The notes under the pieces: model-generated
Told to the model about the DNA's origin: nothing
Database searches by the model: none
The model's input: only the letters and a program-made list of their open reading frames with translations
Made by a program: the position numbers and the translations under genes
In this document: piece by piece, positions 902 through 22,536 of the stretch
How positions within the stretch are numbered: position 1 is the stretch's first letter
Layout of the letters: each line of letters begins with the position of its first letter
Assembly: GCA_964645795.1 (NCBI GenBank)
Contig: CAZYCL010000004.1
Location: forward strand, 21,830-85,829
Length of the DNA: 64,000 nucleotides
Direction of reading: 5' to 3'
Origin: an uncultured Planctomycetales bacterium
Lineage (GTDB): Bacteria; Omnitrophota; Gorgyraeia; Gygaellales; Profunditerraquicolaceae

Positions 902-1360
902 ATGGGGCAGGCTACTTCCGGATATAATGTGTTAGGAAGCCAGATAATGTTCTACGGGGGCGTCGGGCTGATGCTCGCATTAGCCGTGGGCGCGCTTGTA
1001 TTCGCTTATAAGCTGATACCCAGGACAATAAAATCCAGGGTATGCCCGGTGGAAGATTTTATGCGCGCAGCCAAAATCGCCATTTACCTGCCGCGGGATA
1101 GCGATATTATTATTAAACCGGATTCTAAATATTTCTCCGAGTTGATCGGAAATTTTATTGCCGATAAAAAGCCGCCAGCCGGGTCGGTTGTTTACCGCGG
1201 CAAATTATCCTTGTGGGTAAAAGGCAGGCGCTATGCGATAGAGGTGTCGCCGGAGGGATGGAATTTTGAAGGAGAAGAGCCGGGTACCAGGAGCTTACGT
1301 AATCCCGCGCGGGCGATGGAAATTATAGATTCGATCAAAGAAGAGCATTCCAAGAAATAA
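902..1360 (+). CDS. hypothetical protein with N-terminal transmembrane anchor
   Basis: ORF of 152 aa with a G-rich RBS upstream. One N-terminal hydrophobic helix, then a charged soluble region. No family recognised. Confidence 0.3.
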   Translation: MGQATSGYNVLGSQIMFYGGVGLMLALAVGALVFAYKLIPRTIKSRVCPVEDFMRAAKIAIYLPRDSDIIIKPDSKYFSELIGNFIADKKPPAGSVVYRGKLSLWVKGRRYAIEVSPEGWNFEGEEPGTRSLRNPARAMEIIDSIKEEHSKK

Positions 1361-1405
1361 TCGACGGTGCGCTTACTCACTAACGCATAATAACGGAGCG
1401 ACAAA

Positions 1406-10933: not shown

Positions 10934-11585
10934 GCTTATCGGCGTAATCTTATGTTTTATAGGGTTTTCGGCCTACCTAATCTTTAGCCCTGCCGGCTGC
11001 GGCAGGAAAACGATAAAGAACGTCGGCTCATCCGGCTCTACCATTGTCTGCTTCGGGGACAGCCTTACTTTCGGTTACGGCGTGCCCGGCGGGGATGATT
11101 ACCCGGCGGCGCTTTCGAAGATGCTGAACATGCCGGTAATCAACGCCGGCATCGATGGAGATTCTTCTGGCGAGGCGCTTAAGCGCATCCAATCGGATGT
11201 CCTGGACCGCAACCCGATGCTGGTGATCATTGAGTTCGGGGGAAACGATTTTTTAAGGAAAGTGCCCCTCGAGAACACGATCGCCAATATCAGCCAGATG
11301 GCGGATATGGTGCAGGAGAAAGGCGCGATGGCCGCCATTGTGGATATAAGCTCGGGGATATTCATGGCTACTTACCGTAAGGCCCTTCGCGCTCTTGCGG
11401 AGAACAAGCAGGCGATATTCGTGCCTTCGGTGTTAAGCGGCATCATCACTAATCCCGAAATGAAAAGCGATTTTCTCCATCCCAATGCCGAAGGCTACAG
11501 GCTGATAGCCCAGAGGGTGCACAAGGAGGTCGCCGGCTACCTCAGGCGCAATAGCCCGCCTGCCGTCCAAGCGGATAAAAATTAA
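10920..11585 (+). CDS. SGNH/GDSL-family lipase-esterase (TesA-like), probable lipoprotein
   Basis: 'VCFGDSLTFGYG' GDSL block I, 'GGNDF' block III and 'DFLHPN' block V. N-terminal signal with an 'AGC' lipobox. Confidence 0.7.
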   Translation: MKRNRLIGVILCFIGFSAYLIFSPAGCGRKTIKNVGSSGSTIVCFGDSLTFGYGVPGGDDYPAALSKMLNMPVINAGIDGDSSGEALKRIQSDVLDRNPMLVIIEFGGNDFLRKVPLENTIANISQMADMVQEKGAMAAIVDISSGIFMATYRKALRALAENKQAIFVPSVLSGIITNPEMKSDFLHPNAEGYRLIAQRVHKEVAGYLRRNSPPAVQADKN

Positions 11586-11589
11586 GGTT

Positions 11590-11970
11590 TTGAGGGAGGC
11601 TGATATGAAAAAGATTCTGGTGATAGACGACGACATTAATTTCCTTAAGTTCGTCAAGGCAAGTCTTGAGAAAAAAGGGGGGTTTGAGGTCGCTGTCTGC
11701 AGCGAAGGCCGGCTGGGGTTTGATACGGCCAGGTCCGTCTCGCCCGGATTAATACTCCTGGACGTGATGATGCCGGATATGGAGGGGCCGGATGTCGCCG
11801 CGAAGCTGCGCGCCGACCCGCAGCTAAAAAATATTCCTCTTTTGTTTCTGACCAGCGCCATAACCGAAAAAGAAGAACAGCGCCTTAAGGATAACCGCGG
11901 CTGGCAGTATCTTTCCAAGCCCATAGATGCGGCAAAGCTGTTGGAAGCGGTGAGCGTGTTCTTTAAGTAG
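11590..11970 (+). CDS. single-domain response regulator (CheY-like receiver)
   Basis: 'ILVIDDD', phospho-acceptor context 'LILLDVMMPDMEG', conserved 'LTS' and 'KP' positions. No output domain. Confidence 0.75.
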   Translation: MREADMKKILVIDDDINFLKFVKASLEKKGGFEVAVCSEGRLGFDTARSVSPGLILLDVMMPDMEGPDVAAKLRADPQLKNIPLLFLTSAITEKEEQRLKDNRGWQYLSKPIDAAKLLEAVSVFFK

Positions 11971-11982
11971 CGATTAAAAAAT

Positions 11983-12020
11983 AAAGAGGGCTTTCTATTT
12001 CTAGAAAGCCCTCTTTATTG
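11983..12020 (+). terminator. rho-independent terminator downstream of response regulator
   Basis: Perfect 13-bp stem 'aaagagggctttc / gaaagccctcttt' with a T-rich tail. Confidence 0.6.
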
Positions 12021-12027
12021 TTCTTGC

Positions 12028-12084
12028 AAATTTTTCCTTGTCGCAAAAAATGAACCTAGGCACCACGCTCGCTGCTCGCCTTGT
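12028..12084. repeat. 57-bp direct repeat, copy 1 (2 mismatches to copy at 12275-12331)
   Basis: 'aaatttttccttgtcgcaaaaaatgaacctaggcaccacgctcgctgctcgccttgt' recurs at 12275-12331. Confidence 0.7.
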
Positions 12085-12259
12085 TAATGAGCAGATAACT
12101 TACGCAGCGCAGTAAGCGCGACGTAAGTTATAGGCCGAAGGCCGCCTGCGAATTAATCCCGCCGCCTTTTGGCGGGATCTGCCTCGTGATGGCCGCTTAA
12201 CGCTTGAGCACCTTAAGCATTTATCCAGCGAAATACTTGTGAGCGCAAGCGAACAAGTA

Positions 12260-12296
12260 CGCTTTGGTGCCACCAAATTTTTCCTTGTCGGAAAAA
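12260..12296. repeat. 37-bp direct repeat (copy 1) of the tRNA-Ala 3'-flanking hairpin module
   Basis: 'cgctttggtgccaccaaatttttccttgtcggaaaaa' is identical to 12348-12384. Confidence 0.7.
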
Positions 12297-12331
12297 ATGA
12301 ACCTAGGCACCACACTCGCTGCTCGCCTTGT
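12275..12331. repeat. 57-bp direct repeat, copy 2
   Basis: Near-identical to 12028-12084. Its first part is also a degenerate copy of the tRNA-Ala 3' hairpin. Confidence 0.7.
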
Positions 12332-12347
12332 CGGCTCGCTTAACGCT

Positions 12348-12384
12348 CGCTTTGGTGCCACCAAATTTTTCCTTGTCGGAAAAA
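12348..12384. repeat. 37-bp direct repeat (copy 2), overlaps the tRNA-Ala terminator hairpin
   Basis: Identical to 12260-12296. Confidence 0.7.
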
Positions 12385-12392
12385 TTTGGTGG
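12358..12392 (-). terminator. terminator hairpin immediately 3' of tRNA-Ala (stem includes the encoded CCACCA end)
   Basis: Perfect 15-bp stem 'ccaccaaatttttcc / ggaaaaatttggtgg' with a 5-nt loop. A-run then T-run on the minus strand. Confidence 0.55.
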
Positions 12393-12462
12393 AGCAGAAG
12401 AGATTTGAACTCTCGACCCCTTGCATGCCATGCAAGTGCTCTCCCAGCTGAGCTACTGCCCC
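12387..12462 (-). tRNA. tRNA-Ala (anticodon GGC), CCA encoded
   Basis: Reverse complement folds as a canonical cloverleaf GGGGCAGTAGCTCAGCTGGGAGAGCACTTGCATGGCATGCAAGGGGTCGAGAGTTCAAATCTCTTCTGCTCCACCA. It has the G3:U70 alanine identity pair and anticodon loop AT-GGC-AT. Confidence 0.85.
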
Positions 12463-12610
12463 AAACCCAATTTTACTTATTGTCTTGGGGCATCCTACTG
12501 AGTTCAACTTCAGGAGGATTGTCCCCCAAATACCATATTCCTTGGTCTATATTTATCTGTTGACCGTAGCTATTTTAGACTATAAAATATTGTCCGTCAA
12601 TGAATTTTGC

Positions 12611-12693
12611 GCCGAAGTGGTGGAATGGCATACACGTCGGTCTCAAAAACCGATGGGCTCACGCCCGTAAGGGTTCAACTCCCTTCTTCGGCA
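12611..12693 (+). tRNA. tRNA-Leu (anticodon CAA), type II with long variable arm, CCA not encoded
   Basis: GCCGAAG acceptor pairs with CTTCGGC. Anticodon stem is TCGGT/ACCGA with loop CT-CAA-AA. Variable-arm hairpin GGGC-TCAC-GCCC and T-arm AAGGG-TTCAACT-CCCTT. Closely resembles bacterial tRNA-Leu. Confidence 0.85.
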
Positions 12694-12832
12694 CTTACTC
12701 TAACGGGTTCTCCCGCAAAAATCGTGCGGGATTCCCGCTTACGCGGGATTTCGCCGTACAGAGCTTTAAGGAGCTCATAATTCGGCCATACAACTTACGT
12801 TCGCTGGCGCTCCGTAAGTTGTGGCCTCATTG

Positions 12833-12854
12833 AAACTCCCTTCTTCGGCACTTA
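12833..12854. repeat. direct repeat duplicating the last ~21 nt of tRNA-Leu (att-like)
   Basis: 'aactcccttcttcggcactta' at 12677-12697 (tRNA T-arm and acceptor 3' end) recurs at 12834-12854, about 140 bp downstream. Confidence 0.6.
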
Positions 12855-12941
12855 AAAATCAGGGACGGTTCTCAAGACAATCTAAAAGTGTCCCCTTTAG
12901 GGGGACAGTTCTAAATCAGCTTGAGAACCGTCCCTGATTTT
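12853..12941. terminator. long perfect 23-bp inverted repeat with nested hairpin; bidirectional terminator between tRNA-Leu and convergent response regulator
   Basis: Outer stem 'aaaaatcagggacggttctcaag' (12853-12875) pairs with 'cttgagaaccgtccctgattttt' (12919-12941). Nested hairpin 'gtcccc-ttta-gggggac' in the loop. A/T runs on both sides. Confidence 0.6.
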
Positions 12942-13306
12942 TAGGGGAGGAGCAGGTTGATCTGGCTGAAGAGCTCTTCGAAGTTGCAGGGTTTCATTAG
13001 GTGTTTTATGGAAGCCCCTGCAAGGCTTTCAAAAGCGCTCAAGTCTGCCAGTTGCTGTGCAGAGAAAATGATGATCGGTATTGCCTGGGTCTCGGAGTTG
13101 GCGCGCAGCCTTCTGCATGCTTCGAAGCCGTCCATCTCCGGCATGTTTATATCCAGGAGGATCAGGTCCGGCCTGCCGCGTGAGACCTTCTCCAACGCCT
13201 CCCGTCCGTTAGTCGCGATCTCGGTATTAAAACCCCTGTTCTCCAAAAAATACCCTACGGTCGCCCTTATGGTTTCTTCGTCATCCGCTATGAGCACCTT
13301 TTTCAT
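12941..13306 (-). CDS. single-domain response regulator (CheY-like receiver)
   Basis: 'VLIADDEE', 'LILLDINMPEMDG', 'IPIIIFSA', 'KP'. Convergent with the + strand response regulator across the tRNA locus. Confidence 0.75.
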   Translation of the reverse strand: MKKVLIADDEETIRATVGYFLENRGFNTEIATNGREALEKVSRGRPDLILLDINMPEMDGFEACRRLRANSETQAIPIIIFSAQQLADLSAFESLAGASIKHLMKPCNFEELFSQINLLLP

Positions 13307-13397
13307 ATTGCCTCCTGTTTAAGTTTATTGCATTTTATCGCCAAAATCAAGAGCGAATAGGTAGTCTGATCAGGGTCGGATATGGTATAATTAGCGC

Positions 13398-15629
13398 ATG
13401 TCCATTGAGCCAAAAACCTTAGCGCTGCGCTTTTTTTCTGCGGCGATGTTTTTGCTTTGCGTTCTCGCGTTGGCCGGAGTATTTCTTTATGTGTTCTTGA
13501 ACATGGCCCAGGAGCTGCACGATCCTGACATATGGCTGCATTTGAAGAGTGGCCAATACATAATTGAAAACAAGGCTGTGCCCAAGGCAGATATTTTTTC
13601 CGTGGCGCTGGAGGGAAAAGATTGGATCGATCACTCCTGGCTTACTCAGGTGGCCTATTACCTTATTTTTCGTTCCGGAGGCGCTGACGCCCTGCTTATC
13701 TTCTCCGCCTGGGTGATGGCGGGGGCTTTTTTGGTGTTATCATTGGCTATCCTGCCCGGCCGGGGGCATTTGGCTTTAAGCACCTGCATCGTTGCCGCGT
13801 CAATATTTGCCTGTTCTTTACGTCTTAATCTGCGTCCGGAGAACATATCGATTTTGTTCTTCGCTCTGTATCTGTTGATCATTACCAGGGGCCTGGGAAC
13901 GCGATGGGCGTATTTGTTAATCCCGCTGCAGGTATTATGGGTGAATATGCACGGGTTCTTCATCCTTGGGCCCCTCCTGCTGGGTCTTTATTTAGCCGCG
14001 GATTATCTTCTTCGTTTAAAGCCCCTGGCCAAGTTGCTCAAGGCCCCGCCCCTCCAGAGGCATCAGTTACGGTCAATGCTGGTCATATTTCCCCTGGTTG
14101 TCGCCGCGTCCCTGCTTAATCCTTATGGCCATAAAGGAGCGCTTTATCCGCTTGGGATAATTCATCAAAGCTTGATCTCCTCGAAATCTTTTTTGTATCT
14201 TTACATCACGGAGCTTGAGCCGGTATCCCTGCTTTTTAACAGCGGGTATCCGGTTTTCGCGTATTATTTACTTTTGGCCCTGACGTCGGTATTGGTAGCA
14301 GTGCGTTTTCTCCGGCTGCATCTTTTTTATCCTGCATGTTGGCTTGCGCTTGCGGCAGGATCATTAGCCGTCAACCGTAATATGGCGTATTTCAGCTTAT
14401 TTTCTGCCGTCGTCCTGGGCATGGCGGTCTTTGGCCTCATCCAGGAGTACAAGGTAAAGAGAGCGCTATATCAGGGCGCGGCGGCCGTCATACTGGCCCT
14501 AGTTTTGCATATCTCCTGGAGCGCCGATATACAAATGCTTTCCGCAAGCTATCGCAGCGCGCAGGATAATCGCCTGAAAGGCGCGCTTCTGGGCGTAAAC
14601 CCCCGCTTTTATCCCGTGAAGGCCGCGGATTTCCTGGCAAAGAACGCCCTGCCCGCCAACATATTCAATCTTTTTGACCACGGCGCTTACCTGATTTACC
14701 GCCTCTATCCCAAGTACAAGGTGTTCATTGACGGCAGGACAGAGCTTTACGGCCAGGAGCTTTTTTGCGAATCGCTCAAGATGCTTTATGGAAACCAGGA
14801 GTCAATAGAGAGGCTTTGTTCTGAATACCGGATCAATACCGTGCTCGTAAGCGATGTATCCGCATCCTACCGCGATTGCTTTAAATATTTCTTAACCAGC
14901 TCCGAATGGGCACTGGTATACCTGGACTGGGACGGGCTCATATTCGTGCGGCGAAAGGCCATGGATAAGAAAAAGCTGGCCTCTCTGGTCATGGATCCGG
15001 CAAAACGCAGGACGCCGAGGGCAAATCTGCCTGGATTTTCAGGGAACAGGGCTTACGCCGAGCAGTATCTTCTGCGCGGTCAGCTCCTTTACAGCCTGGG
15101 TTTTTATGATCAGGCGCTTTCCGAGGTCGCTGAGGCACTGCGCATTTTTCCCAGGCAGGCTTTCGCATATATCATTATGGCGAAGGTGCATCTGGCCAGG
15201 GGCTTGCTGCAGCAGGCTTATGAGGATATACGCCGCGCCAGCGCCTGTTCCCCTCAAGACAGGTCCGTGTTTATCCTGCTGGCAGAGTATTACGCGGCGC
15301 GCGGCGACAGCCAAGCGGCAATAAAGATTTACCGGGGCCTGCTCAAGCGCCGCCCGCGTCTTTCAAGGGATTATTACCGTCTGGGCAGGGAGTACGCGCG
15401 CATCAAAGAATACGCTCAAGCATCCGAGGTTTTAAGGAAGGCCGTAGCATTGCATCCCCTTCAGGCCGCCTATTATAAGGAGCTGGGCCAGGCGCTGGCT
15501 GCTGATGACCGCGCGCAGGAGGCGATAAAGTTATATGAAGAGGCTGTGGTGCTGGGGCTGGATGCCCATTTTTTCCGCCGCAAGATCATCGATCTGATTG
15601 ACGCTCGTCAAGGGCTGGGGTATAATTGA
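13398..15629 (+). CDS. large polytopic membrane protein (GT-C/ArnT-PMT-like N-terminal domain) with C-terminal TPR repeats
   Basis: About 500 aa with at least 10 hydrophobic helices and an early 'DPDIW' loop motif. C-terminal ~230 aa is made of TPR-like repeats (AYIIMAKVHLARGLLQQAYEDIRRA...). Confidence 0.45.
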   Translation: MSIEPKTLALRFFSAAMFLLCVLALAGVFLYVFLNMAQELHDPDIWLHLKSGQYIIENKAVPKADIFSVALEGKDWIDHSWLTQVAYYLIFRSGGADALLIFSAWVMAGAFLVLSLAILPGRGHLALSTCIVAASIFACSLRLNLRPENISILFFALYLLIITRGLGTRWAYLLIPLQVLWVNMHGFFILGPLLLGLYLAADYLLRLKPLAKLLKAPPLQRHQLRSMLVIFPLVVAASLLNPYGHKGALYPLGIIHQSLISSKSFLYLYITELEPVSLLFNSGYPVFAYYLLLALTSVLVAVRFLRLHLFYPACWLALAAGSLAVNRNMAYFSLFSAVVLGMAVFGLIQEYKVKRALYQGAAAVILALVLHISWSADIQMLSASYRSAQDNRLKGALLGVNPRFYPVKAADFLAKNALPANIFNLFDHGAYLIYRLYPKYKVFIDGRTELYGQELFCESLKMLYGNQESIERLCSEYRINTVLVSDVSASYRDCFKYFLTSSEWALVYLDWDGLIFVRRKAMDKKKLASLVMDPAKRRTPRANLPGFSGNRAYAEQYLLRGQLLYSLGFYDQALSEVAEALRIFPRQAFAYIIMAKVHLARGLLQQAYEDIRRASACSPQDRSVFILLAEYYAARGDSQAAIKIYRGLLKRRPRLSRDYYRLGREYARIKEYAQASEVLRKAVALHPLQAAYYKELGQALAADDRAQEAIKLYEEAVVLGLDAHFFRRKIIDLIDARQGLGYN

Positions 15630-21570: not shown

Positions 21571-22536
21571 ATGAAACGAGCGATCATACTTATAATCATT
21601 TTTATGTGGCTGTCTGCGCCCGCGGCCTATCCTTATTGGATATGGACCCCCAAGACAGGCAAGTGGGTCAATCCCAAGAACAACCCTAAGTCCACCCCTA
21701 AGGAGCAGTTTGACTACGCCAAGGCCCTGCTCGATGCCAAGAAGTACGAAGAGGCCAAGCGGGAGTTCAGGCGGTTGATGAAGTTCTACCCCAAGTCATT
21801 TGAGGCCTCTGAAGGCCAGTACTACCTGGGCTTGATCGAAGAGGCGCAGGATAACCTCTACGAGGCATACCTCGCCTACCAAAAAGTCATCGATAAGTAC
21901 CCTTTTTCCGAAAGGATCCAGCAGATCATAGAGAAGGAGTACAGGATAGCCGAAGCGTTCATGCGCGGCTATAAGCGCAAGGCTATGGGCGTAGTCCTGC
22001 CCGTGGAAAACCCGGCGATAGAGATATTCAGCAAGATCATCGAGAACTCCACTTACGGTCCCCTGGCCCCGAAAGCGCAATACCAGCTGGGCCTGGTTTT
22101 TAAAAGCCTGATGCGCTATTATGAGGCCGAAGAAGCTTTCAGTAAAGTCCTGACCAATTATCCGGATAGCGAGTGGGTGGAGCCGGCGCAATTCCAGATC
22201 GCCGCCTGCCGCCAGGCCCTTTCACGCAGCCCCGAGTATGACCAGGGTGCGACCGAAGAGGCAAAAGACAAATTCGAACAGTTCGTTCGGGATCACCCGG
22301 ATGCGGTACTGTCGGCAGAGGCCGAACAGAACATATCCCAGCTTAAGGAGAAAGAAGCGGAGAGCAATTACAATATCGGGCGTTTCTACGAGAGGCAGAA
22401 CAATATTGAATCAGCCAAAATATACTATAAGGCGGTATTGGAAGGCGCCCCGGAAAGCGCCTGGGCGTCTAAAGCGGTAGCAAGGCTGCGGATGATCGAG
22501 AAGAACAGTCTCAACAAGGCGGAGAAGAGAAAATGA
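21571..22536 (+). CDS. secreted TPR-repeat protein (BamD/YbgF-like)
   Basis: Signal peptide, then repeated TPR-like helices (YAKALLDAKKYEEAKREFRRL...; YQLGLVFKSLMRYYEAEEAF...). Confidence 0.4.
   Translation: MKRAIILIIIFMWLSAPAAYPYWIWTPKTGKWVNPKNNPKSTPKEQFDYAKALLDAKKYEEAKREFRRLMKFYPKSFEASEGQYYLGLIEEAQDNLYEAYLAYQKVIDKYPFSERIQQIIEKEYRIAEAFMRGYKRKAMGVVLPVENPAIEIFSKIIENSTYGPLAPKAQYQLGLVFKSLMRYYEAEEAFSKVLTNYPDSEWVEPAQFQIAACRQALSRSPEYDQGATEEAKDKFEQFVRDHPDAVLSAEAEQNISQLKEKEAESNYNIGRFYERQNNIESAKIYYKAVLEGAPESAWASKAVARLRMIEKNSLNKAEKRK

Follow-up and report, generated by a model that had tools for sequence, protein, structure and literature searches.

The 64,000-nucleotide stretch of DNA analysed here ('the window'; positions 21,830 to 85,829 of contig CAZYCL010000004.1) contains a divergent pair of tRNA genes flanked by convergent genes for two CheY-like regulators, and the trailers of the tRNAs carry structured repeats of two families, designated U and E. 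The tRNA-Ala(GGC) gene lies on the minus strand (12387–12462) and encodes CCA, and the tRNA-Leu(CAA) gene lies on the plus strand (12611–12694) and does not encode it; both were called by ARAGORN, with Rfam tRNA scores of 62 and 59 bits, respectively. Promoter-type patterns together with an inverted repeat place a palindromic, divergent pair of sigma-70-like promoters at 12560–12600, where TTGACC-17-TAAAAT (plus strand) and TTGACG-17-TAAAAT (minus strand) overlap as an inverted repeat with 18-nt arms and share their −10 regions back to back. The flanking genes, RR(+) at 11605–11970 on the plus strand (PF00072, E = 4.2e-21) and RR(−) at 12941–13306 on the minus strand (PF00072, E = 3e-26), each encode a response regulator of 121 amino acids (aa) that consists of a single receiver domain; a protein identical to that of RR(+) is encoded on 14 contigs. 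A terminator-type hairpin at 11977–12022, with 21-nt arms that are 95% complementary, closes both RR(+) and the tRNA-Ala trailer: on the minus strand, a pattern scan flags 12019–11980, which has a T-run, as terminator-like, and on the plus strand the hairpin is preceded by an A-run and followed by T-rich sequence. At the opposite end, a long hairpin at 12853–12943 (43-nt arms, 86% complementary) is predicted to fold as one long stem, with a terminator-like inner stem on the minus strand (12907–12889), and is probably a two-way terminator for tRNA-Leu and RR(−).

Only these outermost two hairpins are ordinary terminators; genuine terminators of the lineage resemble them, for example, in the metagenome contigs L061 and L101. 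The tRNA and CheY-like genes, the outer hairpins and the inner hairpins listed in a first-pass annotation of this DNA all lie where that annotation had placed them, and its statement that the locus contains no credible open reading frame (ORF) agrees with the lack of a Pfam match for the ORFs of 99, 77 and 71 aa that cross it. Among the matches to the Rfam 15 covariance models in 11500–13400, only the two tRNAs pass threshold, the remainder being far below the thresholds and falling on the outer hairpins or on the first hairpin of U. Among the inner hairpins, AACTTACG..CGTAAGTT occurs at 12097–12129 and 12792–12820 (0 expected from shuffles), with no further copy in the 64 kb, TCCCGC..GCGGGA at 12157–12177, 12711–12731 and 12733–12748 (0.14 expected, none elsewhere in the 64 kb), and ACTTGT..ACAAGT at 12236–12259. 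The mirrored order of these modules was also correctly recognized: the minus-strand sequence of the block behind tRNA-Ala is colinear, in an alignment, with the block 3' of tRNA-Leu (score 56, compared with 28.6 ± 5.3 and a maximum of 46 in 200 shuffles). The folding of the two trailers stands out against shuffled sequences as well (z = −10.0 and −9.6). The symmetry of the locus exists because the same repeat families follow, in the same transcriptional orientation, two divergent tRNAs. Besides an exact 21-nt duplication of the end of tRNA-Leu, what the annotation missed is that direct repeats, rather than the listed hairpins, dominate the tRNA-Ala side.

These direct repeats are of 37 nt (12260–12296 and 12348–12384, 100% identical) and 58 nt (12027–12084 and 12274–12331, 97% identical). 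The window contains here one complete U (U1), a second U split by two inserts (U2) and the stub of a third (U3), so that the minus-strand order is tRNA-Ala, U1, U2 with its inserts, U3 stub and terminator; R1, the model of U, likewise finds one complete unit plus fragments. U1, the sole complete tRNA-trailer unit (12297–12393 on the minus strand, as are all parts described in this paragraph; ~95 nt; R1 match of 94.2 bits, E = 5e-27), starts with a perfect 15-bp hairpin, hp1, in which the left arm (12392 to 12378) consists of the CCACCA of tRNA-Ala plus AAATTTTTCC, the loop is GACAA (12377 to 12373) and the right arm is GGAAAAATTTGGTGG (12372 to 12358). The rod of U1 runs from 12359 to 12306. 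The 5' part of U2 (12260–12296) is a 100% repeat of 12348–12384 and comprises a degenerate left arm, a GACAA loop (12289 to 12285), the right arm GGAAAAATTTGGTGG and CACCAAAGCG. It is followed by the first insert (12205–12259), which consists of the ACTTGT..ACAAGT hairpin and then ATTTCGCTGGATAAATGCTTAAGGTGCTCA, contains ATTTCGCTGG..GGTGCTCA after its hairpin, and divides the U2 motif AAGCG^AGCGT; modules homologous to it are present in L072 and L125 and, in the window itself, behind tRNA-Leu, and the same type of insert recurs at CAAGC^ in L074, L075 and L099. Beyond it, the direct-repeat piece AGCGTTAAGCGGCC (12191–12204) is the counterpart of AGCGTTAAGCGAGCC in U1. The second insert is copy A of the E module (12085–12190; match of the E model R2 at 12072–12185, 68.9 bits, E = 5e-10), which sits inside the GACAA loop of U2 and is composed of the hairpin H_a (12156–12178), GGGATTAATTCG, a mini-hairpin (12133–12143), the hairpin H_b (12095–12131) and the tail CTGCTCATTA (12094 to 12085); its junction with the loop, CTCATTA/ACAAG, is identical in L081. 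The 3' part of U2 (ACAAGGCGAGC AGCGAGCG TGGTGCC, 12059–12084) is a 97% repeat of its U1 counterpart, and the truncated start of U3 (12027–12058), recognized from the direct repeats and a weak partial R1 match at 12029–12051, includes the spacer TAGGTTCA, a degenerate left arm, a GACAA loop (12042 to 12038) and the right-arm remnant GGAAAAATTTG. The 58-nt repeat was considered as a target duplication around E and rejected, because the repeat results from overlapping tandem U units, the second of which contains E.

Conserved motifs for scans of sequence collections were supplied by comparison of the window with the contigs L019 and L020. In the metagenomes of the Joint Genome Institute, the pattern CCGACAAGG-N17–22-AGCGAGCGT-N6–12-GACAAG matched 118 stretches, with <1 expected by our own chance estimate; 80 of these were fetched, a sample selected for carrying U. 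Samples in which such contigs are found include lake sediment and landfill. Slightly more than half of the pattern matches (45 of 87) start 8–14 nt past the 3' end of a same-strand tRNA, with at least 12 tRNA identities represented, and the others follow genes for transfer-messenger RNA (tmRNA), form second or third units of tandem arrays or lie at contig ends. R1 has 96 matches in the 80 loci; for 67 of 71 distinct complete units, the immediate neighbour is the 3' end of a tRNA, a tmRNA or a tRNA fragment. In these loci, 59 of 135 distinct tRNA or tmRNA 3' flanks have, anchored to the end of the gene, a perfect hairpin with 9 bp or more, compared with 1.2% of random sites; 10 of the 59 are of types other than U, for example, with the loop TTCATTAATGAA. 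Rfam annotation of the fetched loci gives the order 16S, tRNA-Ile, U, tRNA-Ala, 23S in L058, L071 and L079, and tRNA-Ala, U, 23S in L069 and L115; in L104, a tRNA-Gly starts ~20 nt after U. Because it lies inside rRNA operons and between adjacent tRNAs, U is not a terminator, and it does not have the G+C-rich stem and U-tract of one, hp1 being A/T-rich and followed by no T-run. U matches no Rfam family. A scan of genome contigs with CCTAGGTTCAN{4,7}CCGACAAGG returned only two chance matches in coding DNA, the motif being species-specific, and scans of viral sequences with the U motif and the E tail returned only chance matches, none with an upstream hairpin arm. In the literature, of which limited coverage was available, no description of tRNA-trailer elements of the U kind or of Omnitrophota repeats was found.

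The members of the U family share a two-part structure. The left arm of hp1 is made of the discriminator and the three bases after it, which may or may not be CCA, and continues as an A/T-rich trailer with TTTTCC at its end; the hairpin has 13–15 bp and the loop GACAA, and the right arm is the complement of the left. The rod consists, in order, of GGCACUN, AAGCGAGCGU, a short A/U bulge, a variable stem capped by C-GACAA-G, AGCGAGCG and N'AGUGCC. In the facing AGCGAGCG strands, G-C and C-G pairs are interleaved with tandem G.A pairs, and the same holds for one subtype of the variable stem (GCGAGGC/GCCGAGC; in the window, GCGAGCC/GGCGAGC). Across 69 sequences, 95.6% of the alignment cells are paired, compared with 77.7% in shuffles and 34–43% with slid partners, and 391 cells are changed on both sides, compared with 116 expected; compensatory changes occur at 22 of the 31 pairs, and the shuffles ignore the kinship of the sequences. 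Since the scan pattern demanded them, its fixed letters cannot vary in the alignment; the columns that covary (outer hp1, stem P2 and the variable stem) are not among these letters. Nearly the same structure is obtained independently with RNAalifold.

Pairing of the G.A or G.U kind is expected to be stable on the sense strand only. The rod has 30 G.T pairs compared with 9 A.C pairs, and its G.A/A.G positions are nearly invariant; this pairing pattern favours folding of the sense strand. The outer 5–7 bp of hp1 vary between tRNAs and between orthologous tRNA-Ala(ggc) loci, and 11 of 15 distinct tandem arrays keep the local right arm throughout; in L057, L074 and L096, some second units have arms that do not match the local tRNA. 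A role of hp1 as a minihelix mimic for RNase P or RNase Z was also considered; a cut by RNase P at the foot of hp1 would remove the discriminator.

Comparison with relatives shows which of the two families is rooted at this site. The named relatives of the RlmN protein encoded in the window belong only to Candidatus Omnitrophota or Omnitrophica (58–63% identity), and RlmN adjoins the tRNA-Leu(caa)/tRNA-Ala(ggc) pair in L066, L082, L085, L101 and L122, where it is 57–61% identical to that of the window; in L167, where RlmN is labelled Omnitrophica by NCBI, it is found beside the pair too, on a contig that stops two bases after tRNA-Ala. U follows tRNA-Ala(ggc) in all nine related contigs with the pair (L062, L064, L066, L082, L085, L088, L101, L109 and L122). 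The changes in its arms are species-specific and compensated, such as CCACCAGAATTTTCC / GGAAAATTCTGGTGG in L122, and the variable stems differ, as does, from contig to contig, the sequence after U and after tRNA-Leu. R2 has no match at the orthologous tRNA pair of the relatives. U is conserved at the orthologous site and the hairpins of the first-pass annotation, which belong to E, are not; the presence/absence comparison that it proposed finds E absent there and U kept at the same tRNA-Ala.

The block behind tRNA-Leu contains no U and consists, in plus-strand order, of a 136-nt insert, a 21-nt copy of the tRNA end and the long hairpin. The first copy of the 21-nt direct repeat (12677–12697) extends from the T-loop to the 3' end of tRNA-Leu and three bases, CTT, past 12694, so that it comprises the last 18 nt of the gene plus 3 nt; the second (12834–12854, plus strand) is 100% identical and lies 157 nt downstream, and the window has these two copies only (0.01 expected). 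The insert (12698–12833, plus strand; R2 match at 12748–12845, 68.1 bits) includes CTCTAACGGGTTC, the TCCCGC hairpins at 12711–12731 and 12733–12748, the module TTTCGCC..GGAGCTCA at 12749–12777, which is of the same type as the tRNA-Ala-side insert at 12205–12259, and copy L of E, made up of TAATTCG, H_b (12784–12826) and the tail TCATTGA (12827–12833). It is missing behind tRNA-Leu(caa) in L101, where a comparable long hairpin directly follows the tRNA, and in other relatives. Direct repeats of a tRNA 3' part around inserted DNA have analogues in L071, L058 and L052. In L071, tRNA-Ile is followed by a homologous insert (TCTAAC..GGTTC plus two TCCCGC hairpins) and then by a second tRNA-Ile 3' part of 17 nt, which begins in the T-loop and represents a different allele; in L058, tRNA-Ala(tgc) is followed by E and the 3' half of another tRNA-Ala allele, a fragment that starts in the anticodon loop. 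The combination of insert and tRNA-end copy resembles the attachment (att) sites of integrases, yet the inserts are 95–150 nt long and carry no gene; between the 21-nt repeats of the window, there is no integrase or other cargo, only 136 nt with ORFs that have no Pfam match. A pseudo-tRNA reading of this block was rejected, as no tRNA model matches it at E ≤ 1.

Other irregular tRNA genes are found in the fetched loci. At L122:1150–1310, 3' of tRNA-Leu(caa) (1306–1389, minus strand), the tRNA-Leu end CTCGGCA occurs three times in 52-nt tandem units, with CCA only after the last copy. In L090 and L098, the 5' half of a tRNA-Gly (GCGAGCGTAGTTCAATGGTAGAACAATAG) is broken by the hairpin module TCATTTTTCC..GGAAAAATGA, with an intact tRNA-Gly nearby. 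Group I intron matches (RF00028) lie at the 3' end of the tmRNA gene in L120 (13003–13265) and, in L073 (2716–2922), immediately 5' of a 3' end that resembles tRNA-Tyr and is left uncalled by ARAGORN; the same uncalled end (TTCGAATCCTCTCCTGCCCA or a one-base variant), followed by U, is also found in L074, L075, L080, L090, L094 and L098. It may thus be common in this lineage for tRNA-Tyr genes to contain a group I intron.

The E core consists of GGGAT-WAATTCG, a 14-bp bulged hairpin (..AACTTACG..CGTAAGTT..) and CTCATT, and 13 clear copies can be aligned. The 10-bp stem of H_b is 97% paired and shows compensatory changes at 6 of its 10 pairs; its 4-bp extension occurs in five Watson–Crick variants (GCAG/CTGC, GGCC/GGCC, GCAC/GTGC, GCCC/GGGC and GCGC/GCGC). 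R2 has 32 matches in 565 kb, those in the window being only 12072–12185 (minus strand) and 12748–12845 (plus strand). Elsewhere, E cores occupy rRNA spacers, ordinary intergenic sequence and the vicinity of tRNAs, there in both orientations; the fetched loci are enriched for tRNA neighbourhoods, so that the nearness of E to tRNAs is no proof of attraction. They often form head-to-head inverted pairs of 190–310 bp (three in L085, others in L051 and L096) with the ends TAAGTGAGG...CTCATTNAA, and in 8 of 25 E matches the CTCATT tail (CTCATTNAA) lies 0–13 nt before the start codon of a long ORF (for example, in L085, L051, L055 and L125). At L085:935–1048, the start codon of RlmN overlaps the E tail (CTCATTAAATG) and no Shine–Dalgarno sequence is visible. 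E is a dispersed mosaic repeat of hairpin modules, and its copies in the window are secondary insertions, one in the hairpin loop of U2 and the other between tRNA-Leu and its duplicated end; most likely, they are passengers without a local role. The first-pass annotation had offered, as one of two possibilities, mobile hairpins homing to tRNA 3' flanks that are similar to repetitive extragenic palindromic (REP) elements. This holds in so far as the modules belong to dispersed, covarying repeat families present on many contigs. The family that is truly tied to tRNAs is, however, U, which that annotation did not see, the defining features of REPs were not found, and the hairpins of E also lie away from tRNAs, often just before gene starts.

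The window and the contigs whose response regulators are exactly the same do not differ in sequence over the length that those contigs cover; most of the contigs end inside the repeats or the long hairpin. One of them, L004 (JAHZTK010173556.1), has one more 88-bp unit than the window. Two others, L019 and L020, follow the window over 11971–12291 and then switch, inside CCTTGTCGG (contig region L019:1352–1800), to a different tRNA (..GGGGTTCGAATCCCCTCAGCTCCA, no CCA encoded) with its own U, the hairpin of which has different, perfectly complementary arms (CCACTTAAAATTTCCC / GGGAAATTTTAAGTGG). This junction, at which ~32 nt are shared, may be a strain variant or an assembly artefact; the Logan assembler presumably uses k = 31, which would make an artefact possible. 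Short-read contigs of many samples (L001–L020 and L167; in window coordinates, 12291 and 12907) end precisely at hp1 or U or in the middle of the long hairpin, a systematic break of assemblies at tRNA genes. A search of protein collections with a spurious ORF antisense to U and tRNA-Ala returned no matches, and the exact 42-aa antisense ORF was found on L004 only.

In relatives (L085, L101, L066 and L167), RlmN is followed by tRNA-Leu(caa) on the minus strand and the divergent tRNA-Ala(ggc) on the plus strand; in the window, the order is RlmN, GDSL, RR(+), tRNA-Ala (minus), tRNA-Leu (plus) and RR(−). The tRNA pair is therefore inverted relative to RlmN, and both response regulators are specific to this genome. 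An inversion via the two inverted E copies does not fit, as it would part tRNA-Leu from its repeat. Directly 3' of tRNA-Leu(caa) and overlapping it, L167 has a 249-aa minus-strand ORF (11663–12412) with a weak match to LAGLIDADG_3.

The explanation that we favour, with a confidence somewhat above even, is that the locus is a divergent tRNA pair of Candidatus Omnitrophota whose trailers have been filled with two lineage-wide families of structured repeats, of which U serves the 3' processing of tRNA and tmRNA, and E has been inserted. U would be transcribed within the pre-tRNA or pre-tmRNA, fold on the sense strand into hp1 and the rod, and act in cis on 3'-end maturation or insulation without stopping transcription. 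From the discriminator onward, the trailer would be held double-stranded and continue as a stiff rod, whose conserved loops might serve for recognition by a protein, and this arrangement might give an endonuclease, such as RNase III, a defined double-stranded entry or separate the tRNA from downstream RNA. U would multiply locally by tandem duplication, and E and kindred modules would be insertions that survive in loops and redundant tRNA fragments. Several points weigh against this explanation. We infer transcription through U, its function at the RNA level, the nuclease step and the spread of the modules. The shuffle controls are uncorrected for the relatedness of the sequences; U is not obligatory, being carried by 55 of the 146 tRNA or tmRNA genes in the fetched loci, and the tRNA-Leu of the window is among those that lack it. 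The variable stem of the rod falls into a few discrete subtypes common to unrelated tRNAs and contigs, and U units duplicate in tandem, both being traits of spreading repeats. Furthermore, selection at the RNA level usually tolerates some wobble pairs, and hp1 is near-pure Watson–Crick (863 of 884 cells, with 2 G.T pairs), which would also fit a palindrome maintained at the DNA level or copying of the right arm from the trailer; the purity may reflect very strong selection on a weak A/U helix or the copying of one arm from the other. Tentatively, U might be a so far undescribed, phylum-wide RNA of pre-tRNAs and pre-tmRNAs that directs an unusual 3' maturation, through a dedicated nuclease, a protein that reads the GACAA loops and the G.A rod, or self-cleavage at the foot of hp1, with E as a new mobile element that lands in hairpin loops, including the T-loops and anticodon loops of tRNAs; we consider this combination possible and clearly less probable than the explanation above.

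The main rival to a processing role of U, which we hold to be doubtful, is that both U and E are purely selfish, non-autonomous elements, akin to miniature inverted-repeat transposable elements (MITEs), REPs or bacterial interspersed mosaic elements (BIMEs), which are aimed at tRNA and tmRNA ends and hairpin loops and are tolerated because trailers are discarded. The near-perfect Watson–Crick pairing of hp1 and the discrete variable-stem subtypes suit it, as do the differing tandem copy number in the near-identical contig L004 and the window, the second-unit arms that are mismatched to the local tRNA in L057, L074 and L096, and the nesting of modules in the loops of other hairpins. The presence of U at the orthologous tRNA-Ala(ggc) in all nine contigs with compensated arms points, in contrast, to long-term selection on pairing, the tandem G.A pairs and the excess of G.U over A.C in the rod are features of the sense strand only, U was not found to have a transposase, terminal inverted repeats or a target duplication of fixed length, and the 64-kb window has no further copies beyond this locus. 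REPs and BIMEs of Proteobacteria are palindromic units mobilized by REP-associated tyrosine transposases; the imperfect palindromes are of 20–40 nt, and a single genome has hundreds of copies in its extragenic space. Like them, the repeats described here are short, extragenic, imperfect palindromes in mosaics, located behind genes in both orientations, dispersed and with covarying stems; unlike them, U keeps to the 3' ends of tRNA and tmRNA genes and takes in bases of the tRNA, the density is far lower (two E copies in 64 kb and ~1 per 18 kb in the fetched loci), and the GT(A/G)G or GTAG-type head is absent from the U and E alignments, in which the conserved single-stranded parts are GGGATWAATTCG and CTCATT for E, and GACAA and AGCGAGCG for U. 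With MITEs and foldback elements, E shares the small size, the lack of coding capacity, the multiple copies and, in L085, L051 and L096, the head-to-head pairs of 190–310 bp that look like long terminal inverted repeats. However, the ends of these pairs show no consistent target-site duplication, no parent transposon was found, and the copies in the window are single halves nested in hairpins.

The remaining alternatives are weaker. Transfer RNA and tmRNA genes are classic integration targets, and integrase-less derivatives of integrative elements, such as cis-mobilizable elements, are known at these genes. The hairpin hp1 could be the core site of a tyrosine-type recombinase that uses such genes, and the duplicated tRNA ends could be attL and attR of tiny or decayed elements, a reading that we regard as unlikely. 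The succession of an intact tRNA, an insert and a displaced tRNA 3' part starting in the T-loop or anticodon loop is what att repeats look like, as with the exact 21-nt tRNA-Leu repeat around the 136-nt insert and the like designs at the tRNA-Ile of L071 and the tRNA-Ala of L058; tmRNA is involved too, hp1 resembles inverted binding arms around a 5-nt spacer, and in L019 and L020 the window sequence passes into that of another tRNA precisely at CCTTGTCGG. Yet the inserts, ~95–150 nt long, have no ORF or integrase, and inserts homologous to each other are found behind different tRNAs. No repeats of this sort flank U itself. With outer arms of hp1 that change from tRNA to tRNA, only ~7 conserved bp per arm would be left for a recombinase; the rod is conserved and has RNA-type features, tandem U units account for the 58-nt repeat behind tRNA-Ala, and the L019/L020 junction is perhaps an assembly artefact. 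A symmetric insulator of stacked intrinsic terminators between convergent genes, the other possibility raised in the first-pass annotation, fits the two strong outer hairpins with T-runs that bracket the locus and the hairpin-rich interior (z about −10), but is very improbable: the inner modules have no T-tracts and only the outer hairpins are terminator-like, U sits between co-transcribed genes in relatives, in rRNA operon spacers as well as between adjacent tRNAs, and the E hairpins are missing at the same tRNA-Ala/tRNA-Leu pair in 8 related contigs, including L101 with its single long hairpin directly after tRNA-Leu. Just as remote is a role in antitermination, with the GACAA loops acting as boxB and the E tail GCTCATTAACA as a boxA that recruits NusB/NusE. 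The U loop, closed by C-G, equals in sequence the pentaloop of phage P22 boxB, which folds GNRA-like with the C looped out (PMC12550061), although its invariance is partly forced by the scan pattern. The tail of copy A, GCTCATTAACA, fits the gamma-proteobacterial boxA consensus GYTCTTTAANA at 10 of 11 positions (PMC5725501), and the 8 of 25 E tails placed shortly before start codons would suit such a signal. Nevertheless, the boxA identity of the tail was rejected: all R-type tails seen are CTCATT, with A where boxA has T, the bases downstream of it vary and, in the window, the AACAA there stems from the U loop, and the own boxA of the lineage in rRNA spacers, G[CT]TCTTTGACAAC, is different and coexists with E in L058. 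Both E copies of the window face terminators and gene ends, with no genes for read-through, and we know of no N-like protein in this lineage.

Under the favoured interpretation of U as an element of tRNA and tmRNA 3' processing, its closest counterparts are RNAs linked to tRNA trailers or tRNA processing, such as the 3'ETS-leuZ sponge of Escherichia coli and co-transcripts of the tRNA-snoRNA and MALAT1-mascRNA type. U would share with these the origin of a structured RNA from a tRNA trailer and its release by tRNA processing enzymes. It differs in that the known cases are single loci or eukaryotic, whereas U is one fold behind many tRNAs and tmRNA in a lineage of phylum rank, and in that its first helix uses the discriminator and CCA of the tRNA itself. 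As a whole, the locus is a combination of extragenic structured repeats and presumably functional tRNA trailers, both of known kinds, and U is the part that is new to Rfam.

The repeats have practical consequences for genomics, as they break short-read assemblies exactly at tRNA ends and can be called as genes, for example, in JAHZTK010173556.1; annotation would benefit from a covariance model for U. Both the hairpins nested in other hairpins and the very short inserts between tRNA-end copies offer a compact system for the colonization of structured DNA and RNA by small repeats. If the rate of 55 in 146 tRNA and tmRNA genes holds genome-wide, U, which is also present in rRNA operons, would be among the most abundant non-coding elements of Omnitrophota, and the incorporation of the discriminator and CCA into its helix raises the question of how the 3' ends of tRNA and tmRNA are formed in this large uncultured phylum.

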